A stretch of DNA of 64,000 bases from Bugula neritina (Eukaryota; Animalia; Bryozoa), in assembly GCA_964035545.1 (NCBI GenBank), contig OZ037768.1:12657675-12721674 (forward strand), written 5' to 3'. A program made the translations under genes and the position numbers. Positions within the stretch are counted from its first letter, which is position 1; the number at the start of each line of letters is the position of its first letter. Below are positions 2,572-45,663 of this stretch, piece by piece. Below the pieces are notes generated by a model. That model was not told the DNA's origin. It made no database searches and saw only the letters and a list, made by a program, of their open reading frames with translations.

Positions 2572-3498
2572 ATGATACATGAATTTAAATACTCTATTGC
2601 AGGTGAGACTGGGCCTGTATCCGACGAGATACAGGCATTACTTGACACACCTACGACTAACTGGGACAGCATGTCAGAAGCAGGGGTAGACATGCTGTCC
2701 GACATACACTTATCGACACTTACGGACTCTCCGACAAACACCGACCGACATACTGTGATGCAGATGGACATAACTGACTTGACTGTCGCCAATGACAATA
2801 CTTTGGCACTGCCACAAGCCTTACTCCAACGGACTAACTGGATGACTCGACGGACTCGTACGCTGATTCAAGCACTAGTAGGGTCAGACGATAATAGACA
2901 ATGTACTGAGTGTAGACGAACACTATCCACTACCAAGAGACTTAAAATACATGTCCCCCAACATTTTACTGTGGCTTTCTGTCCCTGCGGAGTCCACCAC
3001 TTCTGCAGGGACACTATACTACGACATCAACGGACTCGAGACTGCTACATTGGACACTTATATGAAGTTGACGCGGACTCCTACACTGAGTTCAGGGATC
3101 TGATACTACCCCACGTGACCGACCCAGACCGACGACAGACTCTCCTAGACCACTTCCCCGCTACCCGACCTACAGTAGAGAGTGACTCTGATGCAGACCC
3201 CCAACCCTCTGAGACAACGACAACCTACCCTCCAGACGTAACCACTCAACCTCTACGCGTCATAGTAACCCGTACTGGACACGCTGTAACTAAGGACTCA
3301 CCACCCCCAACGACGACGATCTCCTATGTGCCCCGACACACCCACAAGAAGAGGAGGGGTGCTAGCAACACACCCCGAGATGACAGCGACCCTGACCAGT
3401 CCCTACTAACTAACATTAGGAAAGTGCAACGGCGTATGGCCCGCCTCAGTAAGGAACAGAAGCGAGCGGCCACCGAGCTGGCTAAGTTGCAGACCTGA
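2572..3498 (+). CDS. Gypsy ORF3: double zinc-finger protein with basic patch and C-terminal coiled coil
   Basis: Intact 308-aa ORF between pol and the PPT; C-x2-C-x12-H-x3-H followed by CPC-x12-H-x5-C; HKKRR; heptad-like C-terminus; homologous to 8492-9565. Confidence 0.85.
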   Translation: MIHEFKYSIAGETGPVSDEIQALLDTPTTNWDSMSEAGVDMLSDIHLSTLTDSPTNTDRHTVMQMDITDLTVANDNTLALPQALLQRTNWMTRRTRTLIQALVGSDDNRQCTECRRTLSTTKRLKIHVPQHFTVAFCPCGVHHFCRDTILRHQRTRDCYIGHLYEVDADSYTEFRDLILPHVTDPDRRQTLLDHFPATRPTVESDSDADPQPSETTTTYPPDVTTQPLRVIVTRTGHAVTKDSPPPTTTISYVPRHTHKKRRGASNTPRDDSDPDQSLLTNIRKVQRRMARLSKEQKRAATELAKLQT

Positions 3499-3776
3499 CT
3501 AGAGAAACGGCTGGCGAAGAAGTGATAGAAGTGCGGCCACCTACACACGTACCCCCCCCCCCATTCTGGCTAGTCAAGTAATGTAAATAGGTTTTATGGA
3601 CTACGGCGTGAAGACTCGTTTTATTATACTTATATTATTTACCCTGTATATATTTTTCTCTTGTTCAAGTGTGTACCTCTAGTTTTGTAAAAACCTATGT
3701 TATTTTAATCATTATTCGTGTGTTACTGTCATGTAAATATTAGGTATAGAGAGTACTTTTTGATAGGTGAGGAGAG

Positions 3777-4185
3777 TGTGATGGATTTTAGTAGTGCAAT
3801 TATTATTGTATTAATCGAAAAGGTTCACTCTATATGGTTTATTATATTGTGAGTTCGACTATGTCGGACTGTAGCTATGGACAGCAGTGGCACCATTAGT
3901 AACCACCAATCAGGACAGTCACACTAATTAATAGCAGGTGGAGCTAGCTACTCGTAGTTGCAGTGCGCTGAGTAGCTAGCCGGCAGAGCAGCTTGGGACT
4001 TCATTTAGAGTAGTTGTGTATTAAAGCTCACTAATTATGTAATCGTTTTTTATTCATGCTAGCAGTAAATAACCTTCGTGTATTTGTGTAAATAATAAAG
4101 TTATCTTAGTGTAAACAACCTGGTGCAGTGGCTTTGTTTAGGTAGACCCACACATAATAATAATGAACTGGCAAAATTTACTACA
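3777..4185 (+). repeat. 3' LTR of Gypsy element 1
   Basis: Starts TGTGATGGATTTT directly after the PPT and ends AAAATTTACTACA (imperfect terminal inverted repeat); contains AATAAA. Confidence 0.85.
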
Positions 4186-4527
4186 ATATAACAAGCAACT
4201 GTGACAAGACATGACAGTGACTCTAGCCAATCATCGCTATGAGAAATATGTAGTTTCAAAACAGTTGGAGTTATCCTTCCTCACCAAACGCAAAACAGCT
4301 TTCCAGCATGTGCAAACATGAAAGTACGTTTTTGCTTGCGCATCTAACAGACGCTAGTTGAGACATCCAAGCGTAGAAATACACAAACAATGTAAATTTA
4401 AAAACAAAATCACTCAACCATACACCACAACGACCTGATACGCGAAACAAATTTATAGTGGATAAAATGAATATAATATTATAAGTTTATTATATCCGAA
4501 ATAGTATCAATATAAAAAATATATATA

Positions 4528-5355
4528 GGAGTAACGGGGGGGGGGGCACAACGGTCATAGGGGTACAAAAAGCCGGCCAAATTGTGAGAGAACTTATTGA
4601 CTTAGAGCCGTGATTTTTTTTAATAAAAAGGTATTGACATAAATATACAGCCATTGTAGTTTCAACACTTGCAGAACATACGTGTTGAAAAGGCGAGTGA
4701 AAAACTGTTTTTACATAAATTTTGTAAAATTTTTAGGATGTCGTTAAAGGTTTATAACTTTTTACACTCAAAGGTAACAAGCCTAGATTTTACTGATATT
4801 GTTGCCATTGCTTTTCTCTACATTGCTTAACTAGTATAACAGCAAACTCTAAAATAAATTTCCCTTGAGGCACATTTGTGTTCAATTTGGCCACACGGGG
4901 CACAATGCGCCACGCTGACCGGGGCACAATGGGCCACCTGATTATTGTACCCTGATCACTGTTATTAGTTTGTTTGCCCAAAAAGTTGGTTGAAATGTTA
5001 CTAAAATCTATAGATATGGCCATTTCTGACTTTTTTTGTAAAATATCAAAGACATCATGGTAAGACTACAAAACTACAAAGTGAAGCTCTCCTAATATAT
5101 TATACATCTGGTGAGGTTAAAGCTATGCTATTTTATACATAATACAAAACACTCTGCTGTTGCTACTAGTAAATAGTCATGATATTCATTATACATTATA
5201 TCATTGAGGGAGCATACATGTATTTGACTAAAATAAATTGTGATTTGCTCATTTGCTTCCCCCTCTCCCTATTGAACTAGTAACTTGAAAAACAGACAAA
5301 TGAGAGCACAAAATGCAAAAGTCAGCCCGTTGTGCCCCCCCCCCCCTGTTACTCC
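4528..5355. mobile_element. Non-autonomous DNA transposon (MITE), TA target site, Tc1/mariner-pogo-like
   Basis: TIRs GGAGTAAC(G)n-CACAACGG / CCGTTGTG(C)n-TGTTACTCC flanked by TA. An inverted internal relative lies at about 17640-18165. Confidence 0.75.
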
Positions 5356-7232
5356 TATATATATAATTGAGAAAAGAGCAATTTTAATTAGATGTTGTTT
5401 TATTGTGCTACTAGTATTTTCATGCCTCTTCTGCACTCCTCAGGCACAATATTGATGGATTCAAGTTTTCTCTACATCATGTACTCTAGCTGTTATATAA
5501 TCTTTCGTGTCTAAGCATTACTTATGCTAATATAGTAGTACATTCTCTGGCTCATGGTTTGAAACCAATTAAAGATTACCTACCACTCAAAACTAATCCA
5601 AACTTCCTTATCTCAATATCTGTTTACCCACAAACAATTACAATAACAATTACAAAACATTGGAATACTCACAGACATAAACAGTGATGAAACCCTAAAC
5701 CCTAGACTTCCAACCTGAAACCTTAAACCTCTAACCTACAACCGTTAAACCTCCCATCTCACAAATCATAAACCCAAAATTTTCTGCTCCTGTATCTTTA
5801 TATATACAGGGTTTATAGGAAAAAAGCCATTATTTTAGGCACATATTGTCACTCACTTTTTCTCTTCTGACGTGTTTAATGCTCAATAAAGCATATTACA
5901 ATAATACTAAATTTACTAATATAACACCAGATTCTTTACATTCAAAGAAAACAAATCAACACCTATTGTGTGAGATAGTTATGCTGGTACAGGGGGTGGT
6001 AGCAGTGATCCCTTTTTTTGTTCAACTTCTGTTTTTTGGCAGAATGAACATGATTTACATTCCTCCTCTAGAAGGTTTCAATAGAGACTGTTAAGTACAA
6101 CGAACATATCTTTCTAATGCAGCTGGCAGCTACAATCAGTTGTGCATAACTTTAGTAGACATTTTCCAGCTACATTTAATTGAGATTATTGTTATTAATA
6201 AATGTTACTCTGGTTATGTTTAAAATCCAATGTAATTATAACAGGTGCTTAAGCACACTGTATGCTAATATTATAATTACATTGCTATGAATATATCGCA
6301 ATTAAATAGATTGTCATTACATATTAAACACAACAACTTTATAATTGTATTCCTTGGAGCAATAACTCCTAAAAATACTTCACAATTACCTATGTATATA
6401 AATACTGAGTGGTGCCATCACACTTAGAGAATCATAACTAATTTATCAAATCAAGATTTGCCAAGCAGATATCTTTTGATAATTATAATAACTCTGCTAC
6501 ACAAACTGAAAAATTTATTTTCATCAGTTTAGAAAGCACAAACTATTTGTTTTCAATTATTGATTTTGTTTGAGAAATTAGACTGACATTTTCAATTTCA
6601 GACATGTTTGTCACTATAATAGCTGTTTTAGAATTTTCTATAATCATACTTATCCATGACTGGTGTTTGGTATTAAATATAATTAGTGTGCTTCACTGCA
6701 TGTACTCATTAACAATACATGCAAAAGTCAATTATGTAAAAATCTCAATGAGCAGGAAAGGTTGATTTGGTGTACATTTATTTATTGAACAAAAAACAGT
6801 TCATCCATAAATATTGTAAAGCGGAAAAGAAACGCTATGCTGCTGTATAAATAAATAGATAACCAGATGTATACAACTTTACAGCAAGTGATTTCAATAG
6901 ACAATTAACATCATCTTAGAAAAGCTAAGGTTAGCTATTGTATCTTAAAAACAGGAATAAAATTATCGTTGTTTGCTAAAATGCTGCTGAGTAAATTGCT
7001 TTACAACAATAAATTGCAAATATTTCTACAATGTCAAATGTGTTTCCCATATCAAAGCAAACCCAAAAGTAAGTGAAGTTGAACTTGGACAATGCAAACG
7101 TAAAGACATGCAAAATTTGTCAATTTATCAAAAGTTTTAAGTCAGATTAATGGTTCTAGCAATCAGCCTAATGAAAAATAATGTCATGTTTTCAATGTAA
7201 TATAAGTTAAAGAGTATATTATATTCATCTAG

Positions 7233-7888
7233 GCTTGAAGTACAAGAGTGTTTTCACACTGAAAAAGAAAAAGACCATTCCGGCTGTTTACAGCACAACT
7301 GATTGTCAGAAGAATGTCAACTTTGACAATTTATATAGAAACAAAAATTCTGGAATTACTAAGTATAAGTTTAGTATTTGACTTTTCAGGTCCTCCATTA
7401 GAATGGAGTAACACCAGTGCATCTAAGTATGGAAAAAGATCACATCTCTGTAGAAGAGATCCTGTTAAAGTATGGTGCTAATCTTTTCTCAACTTCCAGA
7501 GCCGGTTGTTCTTCAGCTGACAGACATAGTGGTCAGGTAAATAATTATTGTAAAATCTTTGTCAAAAACTGAAGCAGAAGTTTGGTTAATATACCACTGC
7601 TATAGTACATTTTAGGATGGATTAACCCCAATGCACCTGTGCATGCAGAAAAACCATGTTCTCATAGCAGAGATCCTGTTGAAGTATGGTGCTAGTCTAT
7701 CCTCAACTGCCAGAACGGGTTGTTCTTCAGCTGACAGACATAGTGGTCAACTTAATATGATCAATTTTCTTCCAAAATATGAAGCAGAAGGAAATCTTAA
7801 AGTTTTTAGCATGAAGATAGATAGAAAATTGGTAAGTTTTCCAAGATTGCATGGCCAGATTCCATGCTCCCACAAATTTGAAGCATAG
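7233..7888 (+). pseudogene. Inverted, scrambled fragments of the ANK-ZU5 gene (linker exon followed by two copies of the last ANK exon)
   Basis: ag|GLKYKSVFTLKKKKT...GIT|gt (7233-7362), ag|NGVTPVHLSMEK...SGQ|gt (7402-7537), ag|DGLTPMHLCMQK... (from 7616). These are homologs of exons 8 and 6 of the minus-strand gene, in the wrong order. Confidence 0.7.
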
Positions 7889-7918
7889 ATCATGTTTCTT
7901 GCAATAATGTTGAGCTAT

Positions 7919-8224
7919 TGTTATAGTTTTCAGATTTAGGGTTGATGTGTCACCAAGAGAGTCTATTTATCACTAGAGAAACTTCACCGAGTTAAGTCGA
8001 GTAGATATCGTTATATTTTAATACAAGAATACATAATAAAATCTAATGTACAACAGTAATGATACGCACGTCTATTTAATTTACAGCACTATCCTCAACT
8101 GAGCTAGTAGCGCAAAGCGGCTACTATTACTTATAAAACAGCCTAGCTAATTGGCTAATACATTGTTCCGGGTCAATACGCAACCTTGCGTATTGTGTTG
8201 CTGGTAGCTCCACGAGCCACCACA
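7919..8224 (-). repeat. 3' LTR of element 2
   Basis: TG...CA; near-identical to 15058-15363; preceded on the minus strand by PPT GGAGGGGGCAG. Confidence 0.95.
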
Positions 8225-8491
8225 CTGCCCCCTCCAGCAGAAAGCCCACTTTCTGATAAAATAAAATTCACATAAAAAAACGTATACTTCGTTGTGGGGG
8301 GGTAAGAGAACAGTATAAAAGTATATACAAAAAAACAACAACTGATAAAATATACAGGTATATATAACGTGCACAATAAGTAATAAGTAAGAGAAGGTCC
8401 TATCTACATGTAGAGTACGTGCCACCATTACGATAAGGAATGCCACAGAGAGGTAGGGGAAGAGTAGTATGGAATTGTAGGTAGACTCAAG

Positions 8492-9565
8492 TTAACTGCG
8501 GGCCGCACGCTTCATGCGTTTAATAGACTCCTGTAAATATTTGAGTTCACTGGATGCAGCCTGCACCCGTGGGGCCAGTCTGTACACTTCTTGCTCCAAG
8601 TCGTGTGCCCTAGCTTCTACTTCACGTAGGTTGCGGGCCCAGGGGGACGAGCGAGAGGAAGTCGGCTGTCTGTGTCTTTTCCGCTCGGAGGATGGAAGGG
8701 GAGGAGGGAGTGTATACGCATTTGTGTCTACCCTCTGTAGTACGACACGAGGAAAGGTATGCGGCATGCGTAGAGGACTGTGAAGTGGAGAGTTAGTAGA
8801 CTGTGTAGGTTTATCTGCGGCTCCAGAGATGATGGGTCGCGGGGAAGGGAAGCCTTGCTCTAGGCGAGATAGCCGAGCTGAGTCAGTGATGAGTGGTTTG
8901 ATGGCGTTGAAAAAGGCAGGATAGGATGATTCGTCTACTTCATAAACATGCCCTTGATAACACTGCATAGTACGTTGGTGCCGCAATAGGTAATCACGAT
9001 TGTAGCTATATTCTCCGCAAGGGCAGAAAGTGGTGATGTAGTGCTGCGGCAAGTGTACTTTTAGTCTGCGGTGGGTTGTGAATCGCTGCTGGCAGAGGTT
9101 GCATTCACGATTACTCTCACCTCCTTGATGGGTCCTGATTTCTCTCTCTGTGGCAGGGGTAATCCAGTTGGAGGTTGCTTCCAACTGGGGTGGCAGTTGC
9201 CTTGTTGTAGAAGTTGTTGGGGCCGGCTCTGGGTCCCACGCCATCTCTAGAGAAGGCATGCCCGGAGAGACGGGCGCGAGTGTGTCTACAAAAGTAGAAT
9301 TATTGTTAGATCGCGGTGGATCTTTACAACATAATTCTAGTGACTGTCGACCGTTGCTAGTCTGAGAGTCACAGCTTTTGGAATGCACTCGAGGAACTGA
9401 TGAATCATGTGTGGACTGACCAAGAACAGTGTCTAGCTCCAGGTCTAACAGACCGTCGGCCATTACAGTGTCTTCATCGTCAATCACATGAAACGTGGTT
9501 CCCAGTAATTCTGATTCAATCTGCTGAATTAGTTCAGAATTTACTGGCATCGAGCCCGTTTCCAT
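8492..9565 (-). CDS. Gypsy ORF3: double zinc-finger protein with C-terminal coiled coil
   Basis: Intact 357-aa ORF; CNLCQQRFTTHRRLKVHLPQH (canonical C2H2 spacing with F/L) plus CPC-x12-H-x5-C; RKRHR; LREVEARAHDLEQEVYRL coiled coil. Confidence 0.85.
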   Translation of the reverse strand: METGSMPVNSELIQQIESELLGTTFHVIDDEDTVMADGLLDLELDTVLGQSTHDSSVPRVHSKSCDSQTSNGRQSLELCCKDPPRSNNNSTFVDTLAPVSPGMPSLEMAWDPEPAPTTSTTRQLPPQLEATSNWITPATEREIRTHQGGESNRECNLCQQRFTTHRRLKVHLPQHYITTFCPCGEYSYNRDYLLRHQRTMQCYQGHVYEVDESSYPAFFNAIKPLITDSARLSRLEQGFPSPRPIISGAADKPTQSTNSPLHSPLRMPHTFPRVVLQRVDTNAYTLPPPLPSSERKRHRQPTSSRSSPWARNLREVEARAHDLEQEVYRLAPRVQAASSELKYLQESIKRMKRAARS

Positions 9566-9582
9566 GAATAGGAATACAAGAC

Positions 9583-10233
9583 TTATACTGGCTTACCTGG
9601 GAACTCAGTATTAATGTCCATACTCAACGTTCTTGGTAAGGTTGGAGCTGGTTGTGAGATACGTCTGCCTTTGGCGATGTCAGCATAAGAAAAGGCTGAG
9701 CATCGTTTCTGAGGCACGAGGTCGGAACTATTTGCTTTACGTGCATTAATTCCTCCCACTATTCCGCCCTCGCAAAAGTTGATATTTGCGTGGGGTTCAC
9801 AACTCCAACATTTTATCGTACGGTTTTCCCCTAGACTTTCATGTGCGCCGCTTCTAATGCAGTCACATACGAAGTCTTTCAAATACGGTGGGGGTTTCCT
9901 TGTACGCTGTCCCCTTTCTAGGTGGGGTGACACGCTTGCCGGTTCGTTAGTAGGGGCCTCTAATGGCATCTCTACTTCACCGTTAGCGGTCAGCTCTTCT
10001 TGTTCTCCGGATGGAGCCCCTCCCTCCGTGGGGGTTTGCACTTCCGGAACCAGCTCGGTTTCTGGAAGTGATGGAATTAGACTTGGCGGTGGCGAACACG
10101 CTTCTGTTGACAAAAGCTGCCGCTCCTCTCTCACCAAGTTTTCCTCCCGCGGTATGACCACTTCGTATTCAGGTCCATGCCGCCGTCACCCGCGCGTCGT
10201 TGTCTGCCTCCTGGGCTCTAACAACGGGGGGGG
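9583..10233 (-). pseudogene. Detached C-terminal tail of pol (frameshift plus in-frame TGA)
   Basis: Homologous to the element 1 pol tail (PPLLEP.R; PPPYLKDFVC). Separated from pol by one extra base in the G8 run at 10226-10233 and a TGA at 10186-10188. Confidence 0.75.
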
Positions 10234-13200
10234 TTTCTCCCACTCCGTTGGGGCTAGCCCAATACGGTTTCAAGCGAGACTCATTCTGGATAGACACCTG
10301 TCCTGAGCGCTCAATCTTGTACGTATGATTGGGCATAGCCTCGACGACCACGTAGGGGCCTACGAACTTAGGCTTCAGTTTATCAGCCTGTCCGCGACGC
10401 CTACGGTAATTGACCATCCACACCTTATCTCCCGTTTGATCTAGAGGTGGTTCATCGGAATCTTCGTGCCGCACCTTCCACTGCTGTTGACGCAGTATAT
10501 CGTGTGCGGCCTTCATCCGTTCCACTAGTTCACTGGCATACTCGTGAACCGAGTTGTCTTGCTCTGGAACGTGATAGGTGAGATGGTCAGGGACACGAGT
10601 CTCTCTCCCGAGCATCAAGAGGTTTGGGGTCTCACCAGTACTGGTGTGTGGGGTGCTACGGTATGCACGCATGACTTGCGGCAACACCGTATCCCATTCC
10701 TCTTGACCTCGTCCAAGGAGGAGACTCCGGAGTGCATCACCTAGCATCCGGTTGTTGCGCTCCACCACCCCGTTACCTTGAGGGTGGTAGGGGGTGGTCC
10801 TGCTCTGATTTACTCCCCAGAGGTGGCAAAGGTCGCTCATCAGTTGAGACTGGAATTGAGCGCCTTGATCAGAGTGTATCTGTTCGGGAAGCCCAAAATA
10901 ACAGAATACATGTTGGTCTAGTGCCCTGGCCACTGTTGGGGCTGATGCATCTGGGATAGCCAGAGCATCCGCCCACCTAGTAAAGTGGTCGGTTAGTACT
11001 AGGATCCAATTATTGCCTCTAGGGGTCAGGGGCATGGGTCCGACCAGGTCTACAGCGACTACTTGCCAGGGCCTACCAGCATATAGCCTCCGCCGTCCTG
11101 CTTCACCAGGGGGGCGGCTATGCTTACTGGCCTGGCAGATCTCACACTGTTTGACTCTGAGCCGGACGTCACGCTCCATCTGCGGCCAATACCACCGGAG
11201 TCGTAATTTGGATATCACTCGCTTGATCCCTGCGTGGGCCTGCTTGTGAGTATCCCAAATCAACTCACGGTGGATGGCTGTGGGGCAGACTACCCTCTTC
11301 CTTTCCGGGTGTCTGCCGCTGGCGGCTAAAGAGATGGTTAGCAACCCATCCTGCCCGATCCGCAGCGAGTCCCAACGCTGACAGTATAGCCGGAACTCGG
11401 CGCATCCCTGTCGTATGCGTTCCTCGCTGGGTCGTCGCCCTTCCCTTTTAGCCCGGTATATGTCTGCCACAACTCCAGGCAGCTCTTCTTGGAGCTTCTT
11501 CAGCTCTCGAACATTACCGGCCAGTACAGGGTTGGCGCGGAGGTTTTGTACATCCTCCGGGGACTCATCAACTCTTTGCCTGAGTTGACCTTGATCCCAG
11601 TCAAACGGTGCTCCGTGATGAGCCAGCGTCTCCAACTCGCATCGTGGGGGACCTCCATCCCTCCTCTCGATGTTGAGACACTGTTTGCAACCTCCGTCAG
11701 GTTGGCGACTCAACCCATCCGCATTGCTGTGTCTCTTGCCCGGTCGATGTTCGATCCGGTATGAGAATTCAGCTAGGATTTCGAGCCACCGGGCGACCTG
11801 ACTAGAGGGCTCTGCTCTCCTGCACAACCAGATCAGCGAGGCATGATCCGTACGCAGCCGGAACTTCCTGCCATATAGGTATGGTCTGAAGTGCTTCACT
11901 GACTTGATTACTGCCAGCAGCTCCTTGCGGGTAGTGCAGTAATTTCGTTCAGCGGGAGAGAGAGACTTGCTGTAGTAGGCTACTACTACCTCTCGGCCTT
12001 CCTGCACTTGTGACAGCACAGCGCCAACATTCTGGTCACTGGCGTCCGTGTCTAGGATGTACTCCAGAGTGGGGTCTGGGTAGGCCAAGATGGGCGCCGT
12101 TAGTAGGCAGCCCTTGAGGCGGTCGAACGCTTCTTGTTCGACTGGAGTCCACTGCCACGTCACTCCCTTTGCGGTGAGCCGGTTTAACGGCTGGGCTATG
12201 CCCGCAAAGTCTGGTATGTATTGTCTGTAATACCCTACCAGCCCCAAGAAAGCCCGGAGTCCGGTCAGGTCTTGGGGGGTGACCCAGTCTTCTACTGCCC
12301 GCACCTTTTCGGGATCCGTTGCCACGCCGTTTCGACCGACAACGTGCCCCAGGTACTTGACCTCCGGCTGCAATAGAGCGCACTTGGAAGGTTTGAGCTT
12401 AAGACCGGCACCTCGGAGTCTCTCGAAAACCTCCTGCAGACGACTGACATGTGTCTCGAAGTCTGGAGAGATTACGATGACATCATCGAGGTAGACCAGC
12501 AGTGTCTTCCAATGGAGTCCGCTAAGGACTTGTTCCATCAGCCTCTGGAAGGTGGCTGGGGCGGAGGTTAACCCGAAGGGCAGCACCTTCCACTTCCACA
12601 AACCGTCCTGTGTGATAAACGCCGCTTTCTCTTGGGCGTCGGGACTCAGAGGAACCTGCCAATAGCCGCTTAGCAAGTCTAACGTACTGAAGTACTTGCT
12701 GCCGGCTAGGGCGTCCAATGACTCGTCAATACGAGGTAGAGGGTAGGCGTCCTGTATGGTTACGCTATTGAGTTTGCGGTAGTCCACACAGAACCGCCAA
12801 CTGCCGTCTTTCTTCCGGACCAGTACGACTGGCGAGCTCCACGCACTATGGGCGGGCTCTATCAGTCCCCGGTCCAGAAGATCCCGTACTTGTCGGCTAA
12901 CCTCCTTCTCTTTCTCCGGCCCCAGCCTGCGCGTGGGCTGCCGGACAGGGACTGTCCCTGCAGTCAGCGGTATTTCGTGTCTGACAATTCCAGTCAGTCC
13001 CACGTCATGCTCTCCGCTGCTGAACACATCACCGTAGTCGCGTAGTAACTTGGCCATAGCTTGGCGTTCTCTGTTACTCGCGCAGCCGCCACTGGCTGTT
13101 TCGTATAACTCCTGGAGATGTGTTGGGACTGCCCCTCGTCCCTGAATAGGGTGTCGAGGGGGTGCCTCCGTCGCGTCACCCAGCGACGGGCCCACGTCCT

Positions 13201-14209
13201 CTTCCTGGACGGAATGGAACCGGCCCAGCATTGACCCAGCTGGGAGCTCAATGGGCTCGGTAAAGGGGTTGACGCACTGCACTAAGACCTCCCCTCGCTC
13301 AGTTAGTCGGTTTAAACTACTGGCGAGTTGGATCCTTTCGTGCGCGCTTTCAACGACCCCGAGCCTGGCTATCCGGTTGCTGTTCACTCGGCAGTGGATA
13401 GTAGCTCTGGAGCGTCCGCGTACGGTGCAGTTTCGAACTACCTGAACACCGCCCACCAGAGGACGCCCAAACTTATCCACACAGGCGAGTTCTCGCCCGC
13501 CCATCAGCACCACCGACTTACTAAAATCTATTCGGCACTGGTGTTGCTTCAAGAAGGGCATTCCGAGGATAGCATCTTCCTCCAGTTGACCTATGATAAA
13601 GGTCTCCTGTACAGCCTGATCTCGGACACGCCCAGGGAGCTCGATAATACCATAAAAGGGGATACATGACCCGTCTGCCAGGGTGCCATGTTCTCCAGTA
13701 TACGGTCGTACTCTATCCCTGTCCCGGCGGGGCAGTGCCTCAAAGACTCTACGACTGAGAAGGTTGGTAGTACAACCGGAGTCGAGCAGAAAAGTGACGG
13801 CGTTGCCAGCCACCTTTCCGGGTAGGAAATAGCTCTCTCCATGTGGTTGTACTTTCACCCCTCCCGCATGTGCTGTCCTGGATTGACAGGACGGCGGGGG
13901 TTTCACCCGTGATTTACGGGGCTTCCGGCGGCGAGGTTGGTGCCGGCGGGGTTTGGGGCTCTCCACTGGGCCTTCTGGCTCCATTTCAGTGGCGGGCTCC
14001 TCTTCCCGAGGTAACCGGTGAAACCGGTTAGCGAGTGGCAGGGAGAAGGTACTGGGCCGTTGTGCGGGCCTACTAGTCCTGCGTGGTACCTGCCACTCGG
14101 GTGGAATGTTCCGCCGTGTCCGTACGGACAGACGACGGCGTGTTCCACCATACTCATTTAGTTGCGGCCCGCGGGGAGGGAGAGTGTCCGCGGGCCGTGA
14201 CAGTTTAAC
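10169..14209 (-). CDS. pol: Gypsy pol (protease, RT, RNase H, integrase), expressed by -1 frameshift from gag
   Basis: LLDSGCT, LPFGL, YLDD, TDAS/ELLAV/TDH, HHCC, D-D-E, GPY. The frame is open without stops from the slippery site at 14209 to the Met at 13984. Confidence 0.95.
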   Translation of the reverse strand, partial: VKLSRPADTLPPRGPQLNEYGGTRRRLSVRTRRNIPPEWQVPRRTSRPAQRPSTFSLPLANRFHRLPREEEPATEMEPEGPVESPKPRRHQPRRRKPRKSRVKPPPSCQSRTAHAGGVKVQPHGESYFLPGKVAGNAVTFLLDSGCTTNLLSRRVFEALPRRDRDRVRPYTGEHGTLADGSCIPFYGIIELPGRVRDQAVQETFIIGQLEEDAILGMPFLKQHQCRIDFSKSVVLMGGRELACVDKFGRPLVGGVQVVRNCTVRGRSRATIHCRVNSNRIARLGVVESAHERIQLASSLNRLTERGEVLVQCVNPFTEPIELPAGSMLGRFHSVQEEDVGPSLGDATEAPPRHPIQGRGAVPTHLQELYETASGGCASNRERQAMAKLLRDYGDVFSSGEHDVGLTGIVRHEIPLTAGTVPVRQPTRRLGPEKEKEVSRQVRDLLDRGLIEPAHSAWSSPVVLVRKKDGSWRFCVDYRKLNSVTIQDAYPLPRIDESLDALAGSKYFSTLDLLSGYWQVPLSPDAQEKAAFITQDGLWKWKVLPFGLTSAPATFQRLMEQVLSGLHWKTLLVYLDDVIVISPDFETHVSRLQEVFERLRGAGLKLKPSKCALLQPEVKYLGHVVGRNGVATDPEKVRAVEDWVTPQDLTGLRAFLGLVGYYRQYIPDFAGIAQPLNRLTAKGVTWQWTPVEQEAFDRLKGCLLTAPILAYPDPTLEYILDTDASDQNVGAVLSQVQEGREVVVAYYSKSLSPAERNYCTTRKELLAVIKSVKHFRPYLYGRKFRLRTDHASLIWLCRRAEPSSQVARWLEILAEFSYRIEHRPGKRHSNADGLSRQPDGGCKQCLNIERRDGGPPRCELETLAHHGAPFDWDQGQLRQRVDESPEDVQNLRANPVLAGNVRELKKLQEELPGVVADIYRAKREGRRPSEERIRQGCAEFRLYCQRWDSLRIGQDGLLTISLAASGRHPERKRVVCPTAIHRELIWDTHKQAHAGIKRVISKLRLRWYWPQMERDVRLRVKQCEICQASKHSRPPGEAGRRRLYAGRPWQVVAVDLVGPMPLTPRGNNWILVLTDHFTRWADALAIPDASAPTVARALDQHVFCYFGLPEQIHSDQGAQFQSQLMSDLCHLWGVNQSRTTPYHPQGNGVVERNNRMLGDALRSLLLGRGQEEWDTVLPQVMRAYRSTPHTSTGETPNLLMLGRETRVPDHLTYHVPEQDNSVHEYASELVERMKAAHDILRQQQWKVRHEDSDEPPLDQTGDKVWMVNYRRRRGQADKLKPKFVGPYVVVEAMPNHTYKIERSGQVSIQNESRLKPYWASPNGVGETPPVVRAQEADNDARVTAAWT

Positions 14210-15024
14210 GCCCCCTGGTATTGGGGTCGTCCTTTCTGTCCCTGGTCCTGATCAGCGCTACTCCAGCCCTGCCCCACAGGTGTTGGGGGCACCCGCAGGG
14301 CCTGACCGGGGCCAGCACCGGCCAGAATGGTTACCAGTTGTCCCAGCATCTCTACCATACGGTCCACTTCGGCTTCCAGCGGGAGGGCTTCGGAGCCTGT
14401 CGTAGCCCTGGCAGCGCTGACTCCAACTACTGGTGGGTTCCTTTGTGCTCGATGCATTTGGGTAGCCAACAGGTAAGCTTCTCCAGCTTTCAGGGCATCC
14501 TCTATTCTGGTTATCCCTTTAGCTCGTAGGTGATGGTCTAGGCCCAGGTCGTTTAGTGACTGGACAAAGGCGTCATAGGTGTAACGCTCTTGGTGTTGTG
14601 CTGGCAGATCGCTATATGCAATCTGCGCCAGCTTCTTCACCGTCGCGGCATGTTCTTGCAGCGAGGTCCGCGGGGTGCGGCACAATCTCTCTAGCTTGGT
14701 CCTAGCGTCTATTACAGAGGTGCCAAAACGGGCCCGCAGCGCAGCCAGTATCCCGTCTACGTCCGTTCCCACTCCGGACGGCTTGGCTTGCTCCGTCACC
14801 GCTCTCCGCAATTGAATAAGGGCCACTCTATGCGGCCATTGAGCAACTTCCATTACCTCTCTAAATTCTTGTATAAATTGTTCGACATCTTCCGACCCAG
14901 TAAAGGAGGGAGCTTTCAAGCAATGTCTATAAGCTTCTTCTCCTTCACGATTCACAGGATTAACAGCATTTCTACGCTCACCTTCTACTGGGGGTGGTTG
15001 CATTCTAGCATTTTCAGTCTCCAT
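14158..15024 (-). CDS. gag: Gypsy gag (capsid-like; no CCHC knuckle visible)
   Basis: 288-aa ORF immediately after the PBS; FTGSEDVEQFIQEF...W...ALRARFG...LQEHAATVKKLAQIAY capsid-like pattern. Confidence 0.85.
   Translation of the reverse strand: METENARMQPPPVEGERRNAVNPVNREGEEAYRHCLKAPSFTGSEDVEQFIQEFREVMEVAQWPHRVALIQLRRAVTEQAKPSGVGTDVDGILAALRARFGTSVIDARTKLERLCRTPRTSLQEHAATVKKLAQIAYSDLPAQHQERYTYDAFVQSLNDLGLDHHLRAKGITRIEDALKAGEAYLLATQMHRAQRNPPVVGVSAARATTGSEALPLEAEVDRMVEMLGQLVTILAGAGPGQALRVPPTPVGQGWSSADQDQGQKGRPQYQGALNCHGPRTLSLPAGRN
14165..14209 (-). promoter_or_regulatory. -1 programmed ribosomal frameshift signal
   Basis: G_TTA_AAC in gag frame (14209-14203), 5-nt spacer, perfect 10-bp GC stem CGGCCCGCGG/CCGCGGGCCG with a 13-nt loop; pol is in the -1 frame. 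Confidence 0.8.
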
Positions 15025-15038
15025 CTTTGATATACACT

Positions 15039-15056
15039 ATCCCACCGCTGCCACCA
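15039..15056 (-). promoter_or_regulatory. Primer binding site, tRNA-Leu
   Basis: TGGTGGCAGCGGTGGGAT, 1 nt inside the 5' LTR, complementary to the 3' end of eukaryotic tRNA-Leu (ATCCCACCGCTGCCA-CCA). Confidence 0.88.
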
Positions 15057-15057
15057 C

Positions 15058-15363
15058 TGTTATAGTTTTCAGATTTAGGGTTGATGTGTCACCAAGAGAG
15101 TCTATTTATCACTAGAGAAACTTCACCGAGTTAAGTCGAGTAGATATCGTTATATTTTAATACAAGAATACATAATAAAATCTAATGTACAACAGTAATG
15201 ATACGCATGTCTATTTAATTTACAGCACTATCCTCAACTGAGCTAGTAGCGCGAAGCGGCTACTATTACTTATAAAACAGCCTAGCTAATTGGCTAATAC
15301 ATTGTTCCGGGTCAATACGCAACCTTGCGTATTGTGTTGCTGGTAGCTCCACGAGCCACCACA
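15058..15363 (-). repeat. 5' LTR of element 2
   Basis: Direct repeat of 7919-8224, followed by TSD CTAT. Confidence 0.95.
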
Positions 15364-16043
15364 CTATTTGAGTACTTGCAGTTATTGTATTACATTATAT
15401 ACACTATCTGTCATCTCAGTATGGATATAGTACTATCACTTATTTTATAAAGACCAGTTTCTCTTTAGTATTAATCCAAAACATTCCATCCAGCTGGCTG
15501 GTGATGGTCAAGCCGGTAGTTTGTATAAGACTGAGATTCGTAACACTCAGCTCTCTAATGACTATATTCTTCCAGAAAAGATTTGCTACCCCCAAACATC
15601 TCTCGTTACATGTAAATCTACTTTGTTGAACTTATATTCACATTCACATTGAGGTTGGAAAATGTTACTTGCATTTGTTGTTCTGTTTTCTTCAGTGATG
15701 TTCCAAATTTCCCAATTACTAAAACTCGTTCTGGAATTACTTTTAATTTATTGAGTATTTATTTCATGCAAACCTTACCCTAACTGATGATTGAAGTCCG
15801 AAAGTCTCTGAATAACCCTAATATAACTCTTGCAGTTTAAGTATATTAACACTCAACATAGCTTCATGACAACAATGCTTTCTGTAAAAATGTACACAAA
15901 TAAAGATGATGTCATACAACAATGGTATTCTAGATTCAATTTAGTAATTGTTTAAATCCACTATTACTCTAGCTTCAATATAATATAATAGGACTCAGTG
16001 GCAAACATTTTTGTTTTGTAAAAAATTGATGCAAATTTGCTGC

Positions 16044-17399: not shown

Positions 17400-18859
17400 C
17401 ATATGCTACAATAATATTCCAATGGACTTCTTTCTATGAACTGTAGCTAAGGGGCATGGCTTCGGTTTAAGTGACTGGAGTACGGAAGGGAGAGGGCGGA
17501 GCAAATGAGCAATCCACAATTTATTTTAGTGAAATACATGTATATTCCTTCAATGATATAATATATAGTGAATATCATGACTATCTACTAGTAGCAACAG
17601 CAGAGTGTTTTGTATTATGCATAGAATGGCAAATCTCTAACCTCACCAGATGTATATATTACAGGAGCTTCACCTTGTAGTTTTGCAGTCTTACCATGAT
17701 GTCTTTGATATTTTACAAAACGGTTTAAAATGGCTATATCTATAGACTTTAGTAACATTTCAACGAACCTTTTGGGCAAACAAACTAGTAACAGTGATCA
17801 GGGTGCAATTGTGCCTCATGTGGCCAAATGGAAAATAAATGTGCCTCAAAGAAAATTTATTTTAAAGTTTTCTGTTATACTTGTTAAGTGATGTAGAGAC
17901 AAGATATGGCAACAATATCAGTAAAATCTAGGCTTGTTGCCTTTGAGTGTAAACAGTTATAAAGCTTTAACTACATCTAAAAAAATTTGCAAAAAGTAGG
18001 TAAAAACAGTTTTTCACTCGCCTTTTCAACATGTATGTTCCGCAAGTGTTGAAAATACAATGGCTGAATAATTATGTCAATACCTTTTTTATGAAAAAAA
18101 TCACAACTCGAAGTCAATGAGTTCTCTCACAATTTGGACGGCTTTTGTACCCCTGTGACCGTTGTGGCTGGTTGGCAAGTTTTTATAATATTCGTTTTCA
18201 TCCCTCACTAACTTGTGGTAAAATGTATAATCAGTGTGGTTGACTATGCTTATCAACATTACATGAACCAGGGATTTATGTGGAATACTTAATCAACAAC
18301 AAAGTATGTTTTGGTGTACACTTTATATGTGTGTATTGAATGAGGAAAATAATTTTACCCTCAGGTATATTGCACAGACTATTACACACTATTGCTGCTC
18401 TATATTATACATATGTGATTATGTGTGATTACGCAAGAAAATGTATATAATTACACAAAAATGCTTTAAATAGACAAATATAGGTGAATATAGGTAAAAT
18501 ATTAAAGCAAGCAGTATACACTCAACAAGTATTTAGAAGTAAACATTGGTAAAACACTTGAAATTAGTATCAAAACCAAAGATTTTAGTTTGTTTGATGC
18601 CAACTTCGTAGTCAAATATGTTTTGAAGTTCCCCTTTATGTTGGAGAATAAGAATCATAACAACTTGATGACTAGAGAAGGTATCGAGGCCCAAAGCATT
18701 GAATAAAGCACACTTCATTTTATATCACAAAAGTAGTTTGAGAGCTAAGAACTTATTCTTTTTCAATGCAACATAATTAATATTTATATATAGCAGTTAA
18801 TAATAATAATGTCTTTTATATAGTTTTCTATATAATCTTCACATAATACTTTTAAAACT

Positions 18860-21800
18860 TCAGAAGTCAGAAGTATTTTCCCTTTTCGCTTTTGAGACGA
18901 AAGCACAATATCGGCGCAGCCTCGCTGTAACAATTCTTGTCATATTCTTTTCTGCTATTCTGTCCAAAGTCTCAACGTCTAAAGAGCACATAACATATAT
19001 CAGATTAGTTATGTATTAAAGTTTTCTTGCTATGCTTTGATACAAGTTTACAATCCTAATATTTTTATATAAAGAGGGACGATATATTAATAGTGCTACT
19101 ATTTGAAGTGTAAGCAGAAGCTAGTTTCACTTTTCTGATCATCTTGCATGTTACTATTAGCTTCAAAAGATATCAGAGATGTTCTTAAAAAAGACTACTC
19201 AATGAATATAGTGGCTATACCCATAGCCAGCTGCATTAACTAGAAGAAGGAAGCATTTCGAGGCAGTGAACAGTTGAGATTGTTTATACACTTCTGAAGG
19301 TATTAAAGTCTGGAGACATGCTAGACAGTTAATATAAATTTGTATAAATACCAGCATGTGACATGCTATAACAACCTGTTTCTATACCTGGTAACTTTAC
19401 ATTGCTTGTGAAAATAACAGCTCTTCAATACTGATGAATCGTAGGGTGTTGACAGCTCAAAATTGGCAAAAGCTAAAGTTGATAACAAAGTTTACTATTT
19501 AATACTACATACCACAAAGGCTGTCATTCACTGTCTGCTTATGTTCCTGCCATGTTACACCATCATCACTTGCGATGACAATGGTTTCCTGTCCATCTTG
19601 ACTAGCAGCAACATCTATTATGACAGGACTGAAAAGGAAAAACACAGGTGCCAATTTTAGAAAACAGTTATACTTTTTACATGCACTGTGTTTGAATAAA
19701 GGTGTAATAAGGTTTAATGAAAACATGAAAAAGTAATAAAAATGATATAAAGATTTTCAGTTTCGCCCACTAAACTCAATGACAAGTGTGTGAATAAAAA
19801 TTACCCAATAAAGGTAGCACAAGCAGGTTCTAGAGAGAGAATGGGGGAAATGACAGATTCACTGTTATGAAGAGAGGGCATCACTCTTTTCTCAAGGAGA
19901 CGGCACACAATCCTCATTGGTTCGGTTGCCACACCAGGTGGGATGGTAAAATGCACTTTCTCTCGGCATCCCTGGAAGACTCCTCCTCTGGCATCCACCA
20001 GGAAACTGATACGGAATCTAAAGTGAGATGCATATACCATGTGAACAGAGCTGATAATGAAGTAGCTGGTTGTGTAGCGTTTGTGTGTGTGGGCGTGTGT
20101 TGTTATTGCAGTAGCAGTTTTCTTATATATATAGAAAAGCTTCTACTGTAATTATTAAAATAAACCCAATAGAAACGAGTAATGTTTAGCAACAGTTTTA
20201 ACTGCAACAATTCTTCCAAGTTAGTTATCATTACCTTTTCAATTTGAGCTTCTCACTACAAATAAAGAAAAAAAAACTGATTTTATAGAACAAATTTACA
20301 AAATGTCTTTCATAAACCGCTTTTGAACTACGTACAGCCAAAGAATGAGAAACATGCTCATTGCATTTCTTGTCTATGTGATATATAGAAAAAATAGATC
20401 AACTTGCTTCACATATAGATGGGTACATTATATACTAAACGTACTTAGTGACTCCAGAGTTTTTACTTTTCATTGAATTGTCAGAGTGTAAATCCTCCTG
20501 AGAATGAAGTGTGCTGTGGGCCCTCTCACAAGTTTTTCTCTTTTTCAGAGTAAATACACTCTTGCATTTGAGGCCTAAAATGAATAGAATAAACTACTAG
20601 TATGGGTGCGTGTGGGTGTTTGTGGGTGTTTGTGGGTGTTTGTGGGTGTGTGCGTGTGAGTCGCTGCGTGTTCGTAAAGAACTGATATATATTTACATAC
20701 ATTGATGGCTAAATTATAGCTTGGAACTCACTAGGCCTCTAACAATAAAGTAAAATTAGCTATGGGTTTTACCATTATGCAAAACCATAAATTAGTAATC
20801 TTCGATTCGAAAAATTCTTAACAATTTAATTTTGCAAATAATTGCCAGTATGAAACAAAGTAATTGGTGAGTTAATAATCAGATCCTTACCAGCAGAGGC
20901 GATGCTACGTAAAGCCCGCCTTATTTTTCCTGTTCGAGGTTTTGTCTCAACGCTCTGCATACCATACACCTACAAGGGAATTATTGCATTGCTATTGTAC
21001 AATCACACTAAATATACATTTTCATAGGTAGACACTTTAATAGGCGTTTATAATATATATAATAATGAAATTATGCACTCCTAATATACTAATTCAACAT
21101 TCATAACGCTGTGACCAATTTATTAAGTGAAGAGTGCCTAACTAAAAAACCAGTAACTATAAAAGGTCCTAAATAAACAGAATAATTGAAAATTTATCAT
21201 TCTTTTGGCAGTTACACTGGTTCACACAAAATTAACGACTTGTATATCTCAATGCTTAGCGATAATTGACCAAAAACAGAACTGACATGCATTGGGAAAA
21301 CGCTTATATCAAAATGAGTAAAATGATGCACGTTTAGCTCATGACTTAGAAATAGACTGTGATCCAGATAAACACTAGACGGAGCCAGATTGACTACTAA
21401 TTTCCTCACATGTTCAATCAGTTTGAGGGACAAAATTTAGAAATGCTTTGATCAACTCATTGACTAATGGCCCAGAAGATGTTGTGGCAATGTTTTGCTG
21501 AGACAAAATTAAATGTCAGACTAAGTCAATGTGAACACAAAATTAACACACAATCAAATATGTTTAGTCCAATATAAGTTGCAATATTGAACACTACAAT
21601 GTTATGATTCTAATATCAAACTGTAGATGATGTTATAACAGATAATGTAAAGGCAATGTCTACTTTTGCTTCATGTTTTGACAGAGATTTTACCATATTT
21701 ACCTGACCACTATGTCTCTCAGCTTTAGAGGTTGTAGGGAGACTAGCACCATACTTCAAGAGAATCTCTGCTGTGAGAGCATGGTTTTTCTCCCTGCACA

Positions 21801-27697: not shown

Positions 27698-29446
27698 GTA
27701 CATAACCAACCAGTGTCATTAGGTCAAAAGAACTGCCCAATCAGCTGTCTTCACACTTGTCACTTTGTAAACAAAATAACTAAATGCGTTTGCTGCAAAA
27801 ACTACTTCCTTTCCCACATCAACCTGATTTCTTGTGATGAAAAATAAATGAAGTGAGGAGGCAACTTCAGGATGATAATTACTAGTTTCTTATGAGATAT
27901 CATAACCAGTAACATAAACCAAGGCTTGGGGAATAAACTGAAAGATAAGAAAAGAGTTTGACAGGATAAACATACCTGACAAAAAGGTTAAGTTGAATTG
28001 AACAAAAATGAAAGCAGAGAAAAGCTGCACTAGTTCTTGTGCCTGATGTCACAGTAATTGAATTGACAAATATTATTGGTCAAAACAGTGTTATCTTATG
28101 CTATCACTTTGATAGGTTTTTCAACATTTCCACATATTCTTGCTTTGGCACGTGTTTGAATTTTGGGAATCGGAAAGTTCTGAAGTTGTCCCTACTTGAT
28201 ATAATATAACAGACAAGTCTGAAGCATTGACTGCATCAGCTTACAAAATGTCATAGGAGGGACATAACTCCTACTATATACATAATACCTGTTCAGTTGA
28301 GTTGGTAGAATAGAACTTTTTTCTCATCAGATCTGGGTACAATCAAAATGTCTTTATACACATGGAGATCAAATGAACTACTATCACTCTTAACAGTTGC
28401 CTCTTCTAGCATGGATATCTGTCTACCTACATTATAACAAGTTTACTGTAGATAATAGCTTAAATATAATATATATCCAGAAATTTAAGGAAAACTACAC
28501 GCGCCTACAAATTGTTTTCATATATTTTAGTCCAGTGCTAACCACACTATATTCCAGGGTTGGAGTAGTTGCAATTTGTAATTGTAATTGATAGTAATTA
28601 ATCACATTTTTTCAAATAATTGAATGTAATTAGTAATTGATGTGTAAAAACGTATATGTAACAACAATATCAGGAAACTCAAGCAAAAGATTTGGCCCTA
28701 CATTCTCCTCCATTTGCCCATAAAAGCATTTCACAATAAAGTGAATTTATAGCAATTGTGACCATCACGTGGAAAAGCTGAGAAACAACAAAATAAACAG
28801 TCATCAACTGATTCAACAAAGAGTTATGGGAAGGAATTACCTCATCATGTTTTCTAAAAAATAGTTTACTGCACACAGTGCAGTAGATCACTGCTGGTAC
28901 TTTCTCTATCCCTTTCTTTGTGCAGATGGCACATGTCACAGAGTTGTCCTCTACATCAGCAGAAGGCAGGCTTTCTACACTAACGTCAAATACTTCCCCA
29001 AAGAACAACACATAGGCTGAATAAAACTTCTGAAATGATCATTCTGGATACATTACAATAGAGTGGCACTGGATACTTTTTATAATTGTTAGAAATCTAA
29101 ATGTTGCTTAAATTTACTTAGCATGGATTATATTTGTTTTATAATGACTATGCAATGTTTTGTTACTTGCTAAAATATATAATCTAATGTAAATGTGTTT
29201 CCAGCTGTCAATGTGCAGCATATGCTACCCAAGAATCACTATGCAAAAGTGTACCTTCGTTTTAGATTACACGTTCACCTGACTGCTAATTATATTTTTA
29301 AACAATAAAGAAAATCACAATTTTTGAAAAATAAATTGCCTACAAATAAATAGTAAAATTAAATTTAAAGCTTAGTTGGTTAGTAGTAATTATAATATTA
29401 ATACTAATAATAATACCATAACTATTATTACTAGTAGTAATGCTAT

Positions 29447-30360: not shown

Positions 30361-31253
30361 CCGTACCAGAACTAGAACTGAGGGTGAGACTGAGAGCAGA
30401 CTCAGACTGTAGACTGTGTAGTCACTGTAGAGTGTCAGTGTAACTGTAGAGTTGGAGTACCCTTAGACGACGACATAGTTTTAGTCTAGTAGAAAATTAA
30501 TTACTGAGTAGTAACTTACCAGTTACACATACTTATAGAGATAGCAATTACATTTACTGTATCGATATAACTACGCAAGGGTTGCAGAATTGCTAACATT
30601 CAGTATAAATTATTTATCAGTTTGACTTGAAAGCAAAAATTTAGGTTTATGTTTACACGTGCTGGAAAGCTCTTGCGTTTGTTGAGAGAGAATAACTCCG
30701 GTTACTTTAAAATTGCATAAATCATTTCTCATAGCTACATAAGTTACATCTATTGGATAAGTTTGAGTACGATTAACAAATTTTTAAAATATTCTATTTT
30801 AGGCTGAATTTTGTGTTGCTTTCTCTTTAAGTCCAGATGTGTCTGCTGAGCTATGTTGGCTTTTTCTGTATGTAAATGCTTATACAAAGACTTAATATAC
30901 CAGGCAACTGTGAGTTGTGACAAGACATGACAATGACTCCAGCCAATCATCGCTATGAGAAATATGTAATTGTAAAACAATCGGGGTTATCCTCCCTTAG
31001 CAAACGCAAAAAAGCATAAAAGTAAGTTTTGCTTGCGCATTTAACTGACGCTAGTTAAGACATCCCAGCGTAGAAATACACAAACAATGTAAATTCCATA
31101 ACAAAATCACTCAACCGTACACCGCGACGACCTGATAAGTGTAGCTTGCATTACGCGAAACAAATTTATAGTCGATTTAAGCCCCCTGAATGAATATATT
31201 TAAGTTTATTATATCCGAAATAGTATCAATACAAATATATATATATATATATA

Positions 31254-31289
<36 letters not shown>

Positions 31290-39160: not shown

Positions 39161-42197
<3,037 letters not shown>

Positions 42198-45543: not shown

Positions 45544-45663
45544 TAGTCTAGAAGTAACCTCCCAAAAAGTGCTCAAAAAATTGACTTATTACACTTTACT
45601 AGGTGGCCACTCAAAAAAAATTGTTTTTAGATTAAAATTTTGTGCTAATTCTGAATCTACAAA
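45544..45663. mobile_element. Isolated left end of the Academ-like element
   Basis: Matches 60652-60771 at the orthologous site, then joins ankyrin intron sequence. Confidence 0.75.

Follow-up and report, generated by a model that had tools for sequence, protein, structure and literature searches.

A conserved, predicted zinc-finger ORF3 in the env position of two divergent Gypsy elements of the bryozoan Bugula neritina

Introduction

Several retrotransposons with long terminal repeats (LTRs) carry a third open reading frame (ORF3) that is not an env gene. In bdelloid rotifers, the ORF3s of the Vesta and Juno elements specify GDSL, DEDDy, coiled-coil or transmembrane proteins (PMC5408684), further non-env ORF3s occur in plants (PMC7264820, PMC9289625) and in the planarian Burro elements (PMC6431247), and an ostracod element has a coiled-coil extension of its pol (PMC7998251). 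Here, we analyzed a stretch of 64,000 nucleotides from the bryozoan Bugula neritina (the window; contig OZ037768.1, positions 12,657,675 to 12,721,674, assembly GCA_964035545.1), AT- and repeat-rich DNA of animal type in which two Gypsy elements lie on opposite strands with their 3' ends face to face, each with an ORF3 between pol and the polypurine tract (PPT) and 3' LTR. The predicted zinc domain of these ORF3s is not described in the available text of the bdelloid, plant, planarian and ostracod papers (PMC5408684, PMC7264820, PMC9289625, PMC6431247, PMC7998251), and the terms ORF, zinc and primer-binding site (PBS) are absent from the main text of surveys of mollusc and annelid Gypsy clades (PMC6238403, PMC8556966). 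Our literature search found no description of this ORF3, which Repbase, Dfam, GyDB or the supplements of papers may list unnamed. As a class, non-env ORF3s are not new; the one studied here represents a real, selected accessory gene family that is apparently undescribed.

The closest described systems share some of its properties. Like the ORF3s of the window, those of Vesta and Juno are third sense ORFs after pol, family-specific, different from env and of assumed spliced expression; however, they encode enzymes or membrane or coil proteins, and the accessible part of that study describes neither a zinc-finger nuclear factor nor a coding intron of their own (PMC5408684). The additional ORFs of plant elements (Grande gene 23, Retand) are also conserved and placed between pol and the 3' LTR, with some nuclear products, but those with nuclear products run antisense and are confined to plants, and the portions of the review at hand do not mention a zinc finger (PMC7264820). 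Chromoviruses have a chromatin-related module, the chromodomain, behind a Gypsy integrase, comparable to the relatives of our ORF3 that are fused to pol; the chromodomain is theirs only, whereas ORF3 is usually a separate gene for which targeting is a candidate role (PMC9289625). No Chromo match was found in either pol of the window or in the pol-ORF3 fusion P0251. Finally, VANC of the VANDAL transposons is a precedent for transposon-coded, family-specific anti-silencing, being an accessory protein proposed to act on the chromatin of its own family; it belongs to a plant DNA transposon and concerns DNA methylation, and the likeness is one of functional analogy only (PMC6719617).

Results

The ORF3 of element 1 (P0001, 308 amino acids (aa) as initially called; 2572-3498, + strand) and that of element 2 (P0002, 357 aa, with an ATG of its own; 8492-9565, - strand) match each other in BLASTP with an E-value of 8e-40 and 34% identity across 239 aa. 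The similarity is concentrated in a core with two predicted zinc fingers (aa 89-200, 2836-3171, + strand, in element 1; aa 133-244, 8834-9169, - strand, in element 2) that aligns over 112 aa without gaps at 46% identity, in agreement with the roughly 110 aa and 45% estimated by eye in a preliminary description of this DNA. Nucleotide identity in the core is 58, 64 and 29% at codon positions 1, 2 and 3, and the nonsynonymous divergence (dN) between the elements is 0.51, with synonymous divergence (dS) saturated; using the dS of 2.65 borrowed from the integrase, the ratio is near 0.2, far from the value near 1 that would speak against function. Purifying selection acts on the ORF3 core. BLASTN between the elements found matches in pol and in a 45-nucleotide (nt) piece of the pol tail only, and therefore ORF3, linkers and LTRs are not alignable as DNA, the latter two having been noted earlier as barely alignable. 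Both ORF3s had been called intact: their positions and open frames bear this out, but the ORF3 of element 1 stops 9 codons earlier than P0067, the relative closest to it, so that this copy is not fully intact, and its presumed start Met at 2572 falls within an inferred intron (see below).

Outside the core, both proteins have an acidic N-terminus, a basic patch and a C-terminal coil. In element 1 the patch (KKRR) and a heptad helix occupy 3346-3495 (+), and in element 2 the patch (RKRHR) and a 49-residue helix occupy 8495-8683 (-). This layout recurs in the family, as among 28 long members tested the N-terminal region is net negative in 27, a basic patch is present in 16 and C-terminal heptads are recurrent. 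No membrane segment was found in any of the 28 (maximum hydropathy over 19 residues 1.36 overall, 0.87 and 0.58 in the window proteins), nor was a signal peptide apparent, and ORF3 is therefore very unlikely to be env. Selection, hydropathy, layout and recurrence with the pol clade thus agree with the earlier proposal of a selected accessory ORF with a transcription-factor-like layout.

In word-based searches, 64 of 2019 candidates proved to be relatives of P0002, and 33 of 3276 relatives of P0001. All are unnamed and lack a Pfam domain, and these ~97 near relatives give the impression of copies that are dispersed and in part decayed. The core defines a large family for which Pfam has no dedicated model: a profile search retrieved 337 proteins at E <= 0.001 (144 at 1e-10, 46 at 1e-30), an overcount, since at least one of them (P0148) is an ordinary C2H2 array; 70 of the 150 relatives listed were examined individually. 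Scans for ORF3 in metagenome, viral and prokaryote contigs confirmed none of 575, 118 and 46 stretches, respectively. Conservation was assessed on 72 representatives under 60% identity, whose selection by the family hidden Markov model inflates the values: C155, C158, H171, H175, C181, C183 and H196 are conserved at 93-100%, and W134, T139 and a VD pair at 86-93%. Finger 1, with the pattern C-x2-C-x12-H-x3-H and an F/L core, is present in 67 of the 72 (spacer of 12 in 43), with Pfam scores against PF00096 under the cut-off. Finger 2 reads C-x-C-x11-13-H, also in 67, followed by a variable fourth Cys or His 3-13 residues further. The double zinc finger first reported thus holds for finger 1, a canonical C2H2, whereas three of the ligands of finger 2 are fixed and its fourth varies. 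At E <= 0.001, Pfam matched only three of 69 remote members (two generic C2H2, one protease).

The core alone was modeled by AlphaFold2 with high confidence (pLDDT 95.9, pTM 0.86). In the model of the full protein, disordered stretches precede and follow the core, and the 49-residue helix comes last. Residues 22-78 of the core can be superposed on tandem C2H2 pairs in complex with DNA (Z 3.0-3.6, root-mean-square deviation mostly 2.3-4.1 A, ~50-57 residues) such as those of Kaiso/ZBTB33, ZBTB7A, SALL4 and CTCF, which share the canonical finger 1; unlike these proteins, ORF3 has two fingers only, a C-x-C second finger, a non-standard linker and unmatched N- and C-terminal extras. No structural chain reached Z >= 5 with the core alone (best 3.6) and no whole-domain match was found; fold searches with the whole protein gave generic coils or sub-threshold C2H2 matches, and in a profile comparison the family hits C2H2 arrays (E 3e-6). 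In the model, the core is a two-finger module inside a compact wrap that has no structural match, and it would bind zinc. No env family was matched in Pfam, and no fold match was found in PDB or BFVD at E <= 0.001.

The only conserved island outside the core is a PxVxL-like heptamer, with an identity of 0.60 in four subfamilies compared with 0.50 in the core and 0.18-0.25 elsewhere. It reads LRVIVTR in element 1 (3253-3273, +) and PRVVLQR in element 2 (8732-8752, -), and in both proteins the hydrophobic-x-V-x-hydrophobic core, a basic residue at +4 and a disordered, conserved context are present (pLDDT under 50 around the motif in P0002). Among 18 window-clade representatives, which are not independent of each other, the motif core occurs in 10, compared with 1.4 in shuffled sequences, and the complete HAC pattern in seven, compared with 1.0; P0001 also has the complete pattern. 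This pattern was taken from a study whose available text cautions that the bare pentamer is common (PMC12526061). The motif suggests that ORF3 may bind HP1.

The coding start of ORF3 in element 1 is most likely at 2316 rather than 2572. A predicted exon 1 of ATG plus nine codons (2316-2343, +; phase 1) leads up to a G|GTAAGT donor, followed by a putative GT-AG intron of 259 nt (2344-2602, +; GC 0.36) and by exon 2 (2603-3498, +; P0001 from residue 12), which carries the acidic region, zinc core, motif, basic patch and coil. The intron is AT-richer than its surroundings, ends with pyrimidines and CAG at 2602, and its phases agree. Moreover, in the homologue P0076 exon 1 is joined in register to exon 2 (identities 8/9 and 22/30), so that P0076 is either a spliced transcript or an intron-less retrocopy; four other homologues that extend upstream of the junction site have unrelated residues there. 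The ORF3 of element 1 thus appears to be split by an intron. For element 2, an intron is suggested by analogy only: a candidate exon 1 of ATG plus eight codons (9597-9621, -; phase 1) lies in the pol-tail frame and ends in a CAG|GTAAG donor, and the candidate intron of 311 nt (9286-9596, -; GT...CTAAC...pyrimidines-TAG), with its acceptor at 9286/9285 and agreeing phases, would overlap codons 1-94 of the ORF3 as read without splicing, whose own ATG aligns with the acceptor of element 1. In the 51 of 65 relatives matching a motif pattern at this place, which itself fixes the flanks, the residue before the Asp is in every case L, S, V or I, as expected from a YAG acceptor. By a crude score, acceptor-like sites ahead of ORF3 rank 4 of 595 AG sites at locus L001, 1 of 384 at locus L003 (both described below) and 11 of 294 in element 1; CAG|GTAAG at 9597 was also considered as an acceptor and dropped (rank 95 of 536). 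As is typical of env, ORF3 would therefore lie after pol and behind a splice acceptor, the sites being predicted and one homologue being joined. Among the joints listed (15 of 98 and 15 of 88), none fell at either predicted intron, all runs consisting of contigs. One RNA-library contig spans 8565-8840, where carry-over of DNA is possible, and the ORF3 of element 1 is barely covered at 88% likeness in runs X5, X6 and X2, which is uninformative. Taken together, ORF3 is likely expressed from a spliced RNA, judging from the sequence features.

To follow ORF3 beyond the window, 14 loci with related integrases were collected, five of which have more than 900 nt downstream. At two metagenome loci ORF3 follows the integrase: at L003 the core is found in a separate ORF right after pol (independent E-value 1.7e-11), and at L001 between post-pol sequence and the PPT/LTR of the upstream copy (4e-16), the downstream copy having lost ORF3 by a deletion at a short microhomology. 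Positions 1-2036 and 7335-8100 of L001 are tandem or collapsed copies with a common LTR, which has a 15-bp tandem repeat. At L006 an acidic ORF is interrupted by the contig end, and at L009 and L011, which are more distant or decayed, no core was found downstream of the integrase. Hence, the position of ORF3 recurs in families with integrases 54-64% identical, but the strict linkage to this pol clade that had been put forward for testing does not hold, as two of the five informative loci lack ORF3 and annotated homologues exist in bryozoan genomes. Integrase scans of viral and prokaryote contigs yielded none of 21 and none of 36.

In some relatives the core is fused to parts of pol. P0251 combines RNase H, an integrase 64% identical to that of the window, the core and the terminal helix in a single frame of 1460 aa, with an internal Met and acidic stretch that resemble, by eye, the start of the stand-alone P0213. 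In P0226 and P0245 the protease of the clade is joined in frame to the core; they comprise protease, pol tail and zinc core without reverse transcriptase or integrase, and likely represent a non-autonomous element retaining the ORF3 module. P0191, P0232 and P0137 have ahead of the core what we take to be a pol-tail-like motif, which flags six of 182. The four fused rows of the tree all fall within one clade of 27 rows (support 97/93). Longer fused forms were absent among 3034 candidates, which is weak evidence given that the search range was 1309-3735 aa only.

Annotated bryozoan proteins (Watersipora subatra, B. neritina) were present in four of 30 looked-up clusters, two of them with tandem cores, the other clusters being unnamed or hypothetical. 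Bryozoan rows group together in none of 200 bootstrap trees, the tree being unrooted as to the direction of transfer, and this fits repeated co-option or mis-annotated elements. Three bryozoan proteins (P0200, P0247, P0252) share a further domain of ~50 aa that lies N-terminal to the zinc core, and two Bugula genes among them have consecutive locus numbers, which suggests a host gene cluster.

Element 2 (-) is complete and has the TG...CA LTRs, PBS, PPT and target-site duplication of an LTR retrotransposon and the Ty3/Gypsy pol order of protease, reverse transcriptase, RNase H and integrase, whereas element 1 shows its 3' end only. The 5' LTR of element 2 (306 bp; 15058-15363, -) and its 3' LTR (7919-8224, -) have two differences over 306 bp and are flanked by the duplication ATAG (15364-15367 and 7915-7918). 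The PBS (15039-15056, -), the same or nearly the same in L001-L003, is presumably of the tRNA-Leu type. The gag (14158-15024, -), without Pfam match, was assigned by its position and its likeness to the gag ORFs of L001-L003; it has no CCHC knuckle, in contrast to the gag of L002, and a strong donor-like site lies ~40 nt 3' of its ATG. The pol (10169-14251, -) is disrupted in this copy near 10170-10185 and continues in a second frame as the pol tail (9583-10185, -), which terminates four codons past the CAG|GTAAG donor. Element 2 is covered by 6468 contigs of run X1, ORF3 included, with empty-site joints visible, and is a young, multicopy element. The left end of element 1 (+) lies outside the window, which holds the 3' part of its pol (RNase H end, integrase and tail; 2-2074, +), with the frame still open past the stop, to 2323. 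A putative 3' LTR (TG...CA; about 3777-4154, +) preceded by a purine tract (~3761-3776) closes the element; its ends are predicted, as the window does not reach the 5' LTR. This LTR contains a perfect 11-bp inverted repeat with a 16-nt spacer at 3943-3980 (one of 40 shuffles equally good), and that of element 2 a 10-bp palindrome at 8174-8195. LTR dyads as sites for a dimer were considered and dropped, the dyad scan of element 2 being at chance level (11 of 40 shuffles).

The remainder of the window is rich in repeats. ZU5-domain (ankyrin/UNC5-type) exon-like pieces at 19801-20142 (-) and 50416-50742 (-) belong to a duplicated block ~30.6 kb apart and 92-98% identical. A repeat of ~1.3-1.7 kb without long ORF, possibly a non-autonomous element, is present in three copies (~6000-7340, 43960-45660 and 59060-60770; 88-98% identity), and a high-copy repeat resembling miniature inverted-repeat transposable elements (4400-5350, 17487-18146 and 31182-31277) occurs with inverted partners and is covered to great depth by contigs of X5 and X6. 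In addition, a near-pure AT satellite of ~1.4 kb (40140-41600, GC 0.10) is flanked by a 235-bp inverted repeat, and a short Cys-rich exon-like piece at 28679-29038 (-) is B-box-like by eye, with a sub-threshold Pfam match only.

Discussion

We propose, with a probability of roughly 45%, that the product of ORF3 is a nuclear, likely dimeric regulator of the transcription of its own element that engages HP1. The protein would be made from a spliced RNA as a separate product, imported into the nucleus through its basic patch and dimerized through the C-terminal heptads. The two-finger core, given its partial likeness to DNA-bound C2H2 pairs, might bind the element's own DNA, and the PxVxL-like motif could engage HP1. 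ORF3 would thereby control whether the element is transcribed, with silencing more likely relieved than imposed; we favor activation or anti-silencing over self-repression by about three to one because the N-terminus is acidic. Complex retroviruses have nuclear trans-activators (foamy virus Tas, HIV Tat and Rev) whose genes lie 3' of pol and are read from spliced RNA; unlike these viruses, the ORF3 elements have no env, no sequence likeness was found, and the comparison is an analogy only.

Several observations weigh against this proposal. Finger 2 is not canonical and the linker between the fingers is not of the TGEKP type; the resemblance to DNA-bound C2H2 structures is weak, extending over less than half of the domain, and Foldseek found nothing at E <= 0.001 (best E 0.15). 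As for the motif, P0002 shows the core but not the full HAC pattern, which was defined in Drosophila; the bare pentamer is present in over half of the fly proteome; the window-clade counts come from related proteins; and in remote members the core motif is found upstream of the zinc core in 9 of 40 (2.1 expected) and downstream in five of 39 (2.5 expected). It may instead be a SUMO-interacting motif or a structural strand. Moreover, two of five loci without the core and one copy with ORF3 deleted indicate that ORF3 can be dispensed with, either in cis or in certain lineages, and the in-frame fusions of pol and core suit a targeting role better.

Accordingly, the most serious alternative, albeit a rather doubtful one, is that of an integration tether, in which the zinc core and HP1 motif would steer the integrase complex to heterochromatin or to particular DNA, with ORF3 joined to Pol directly in some lineages and by splicing or protein contact in others. 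The existence of the integrase-core and protease-core fusions, the pol-tail-like motifs of P0191, P0232 and P0137, the confinement of the four fused rows of the tree to one clade, the donor of element 2 in the pol-tail frame with a phase agreeing with the candidate acceptor, and the precedent of the chromodomain in chromoviruses (PMC9289625) speak for it. However, ORF3 is separate and has its own ATG in the window elements, L001 and L003, exon 1 of element 1 is outside the pol frame, and the fusions are single assembled copies in which a stop codon may have been lost. The regulator and tether readings need not exclude each other.

An RNA-level regulator in the manner of Rev or Rex, which would bind the element's RNA, oligomerize through the coil and protect or export unspliced genomic RNA or block small-RNA silencing, is unlikely. 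An element with an intron inside ORF3 would need to retain unspliced RNA for packaging, an Arg-rich patch and a coil are present, and weak, sub-threshold matches to zf-C2H2_jaz, a dsRNA-binding finger, were obtained in two of 23 members and in the L001 ORF; yet DNA-binding fingers score best in both the structural and the profile comparisons, and the PxVxL-like motif and acidic region are left unexplained. It is still less probable that ORF3 is a captured host gene or passenger without a role in the element cycle, from a family of mainly host genes. The annotated bryozoan proteins, two clusters of which have tandem cores, would fit this, but not the selection between elements, the position kept among divergent integrases, the dispersed and partly decayed appearance of the near relatives, or the scattering of bryozoan rows in all bootstrap trees. 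A degenerate or unusual env or fusogen, to which position and coiled coil would point, is largely refuted by the lack of hydrophobic segments in all 28 members, the arrangement of Cys and His as zinc ligands and the absence of env families among the Pfam matches.

Beyond the individual protein, we can only tentatively picture an old animal Gypsy clade whose own zinc-finger chromatin factor, made from multiply spliced RNA like the regulatory genes of complex retroviruses, binds the element and engages HP1 so as to lift or steer silencing. In this picture the factor is free in some cases and fused to integrase in others, has been recruited repeatedly as host genes in bryozoans, and would be a counterpart of VANC in animal retrotransposons. 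Proteins by which transposons counter silencing or target chromatin are known chiefly from plants and fungi, and the ORF3s of animal Gypsy elements are usually filed as env. With this widespread, predicted nuclear ORF3, its delimited zinc domain and its possible HP1 motif, one can test directly and at low cost whether animal retrotransposons manipulate heterochromatin by a protein of their own. In addition, the core constitutes a new domain family for annotation, and the elements provide an example of a retroelement gene that appears to have retained an intron, and perhaps of transposons supplying zinc-finger genes to their hosts.

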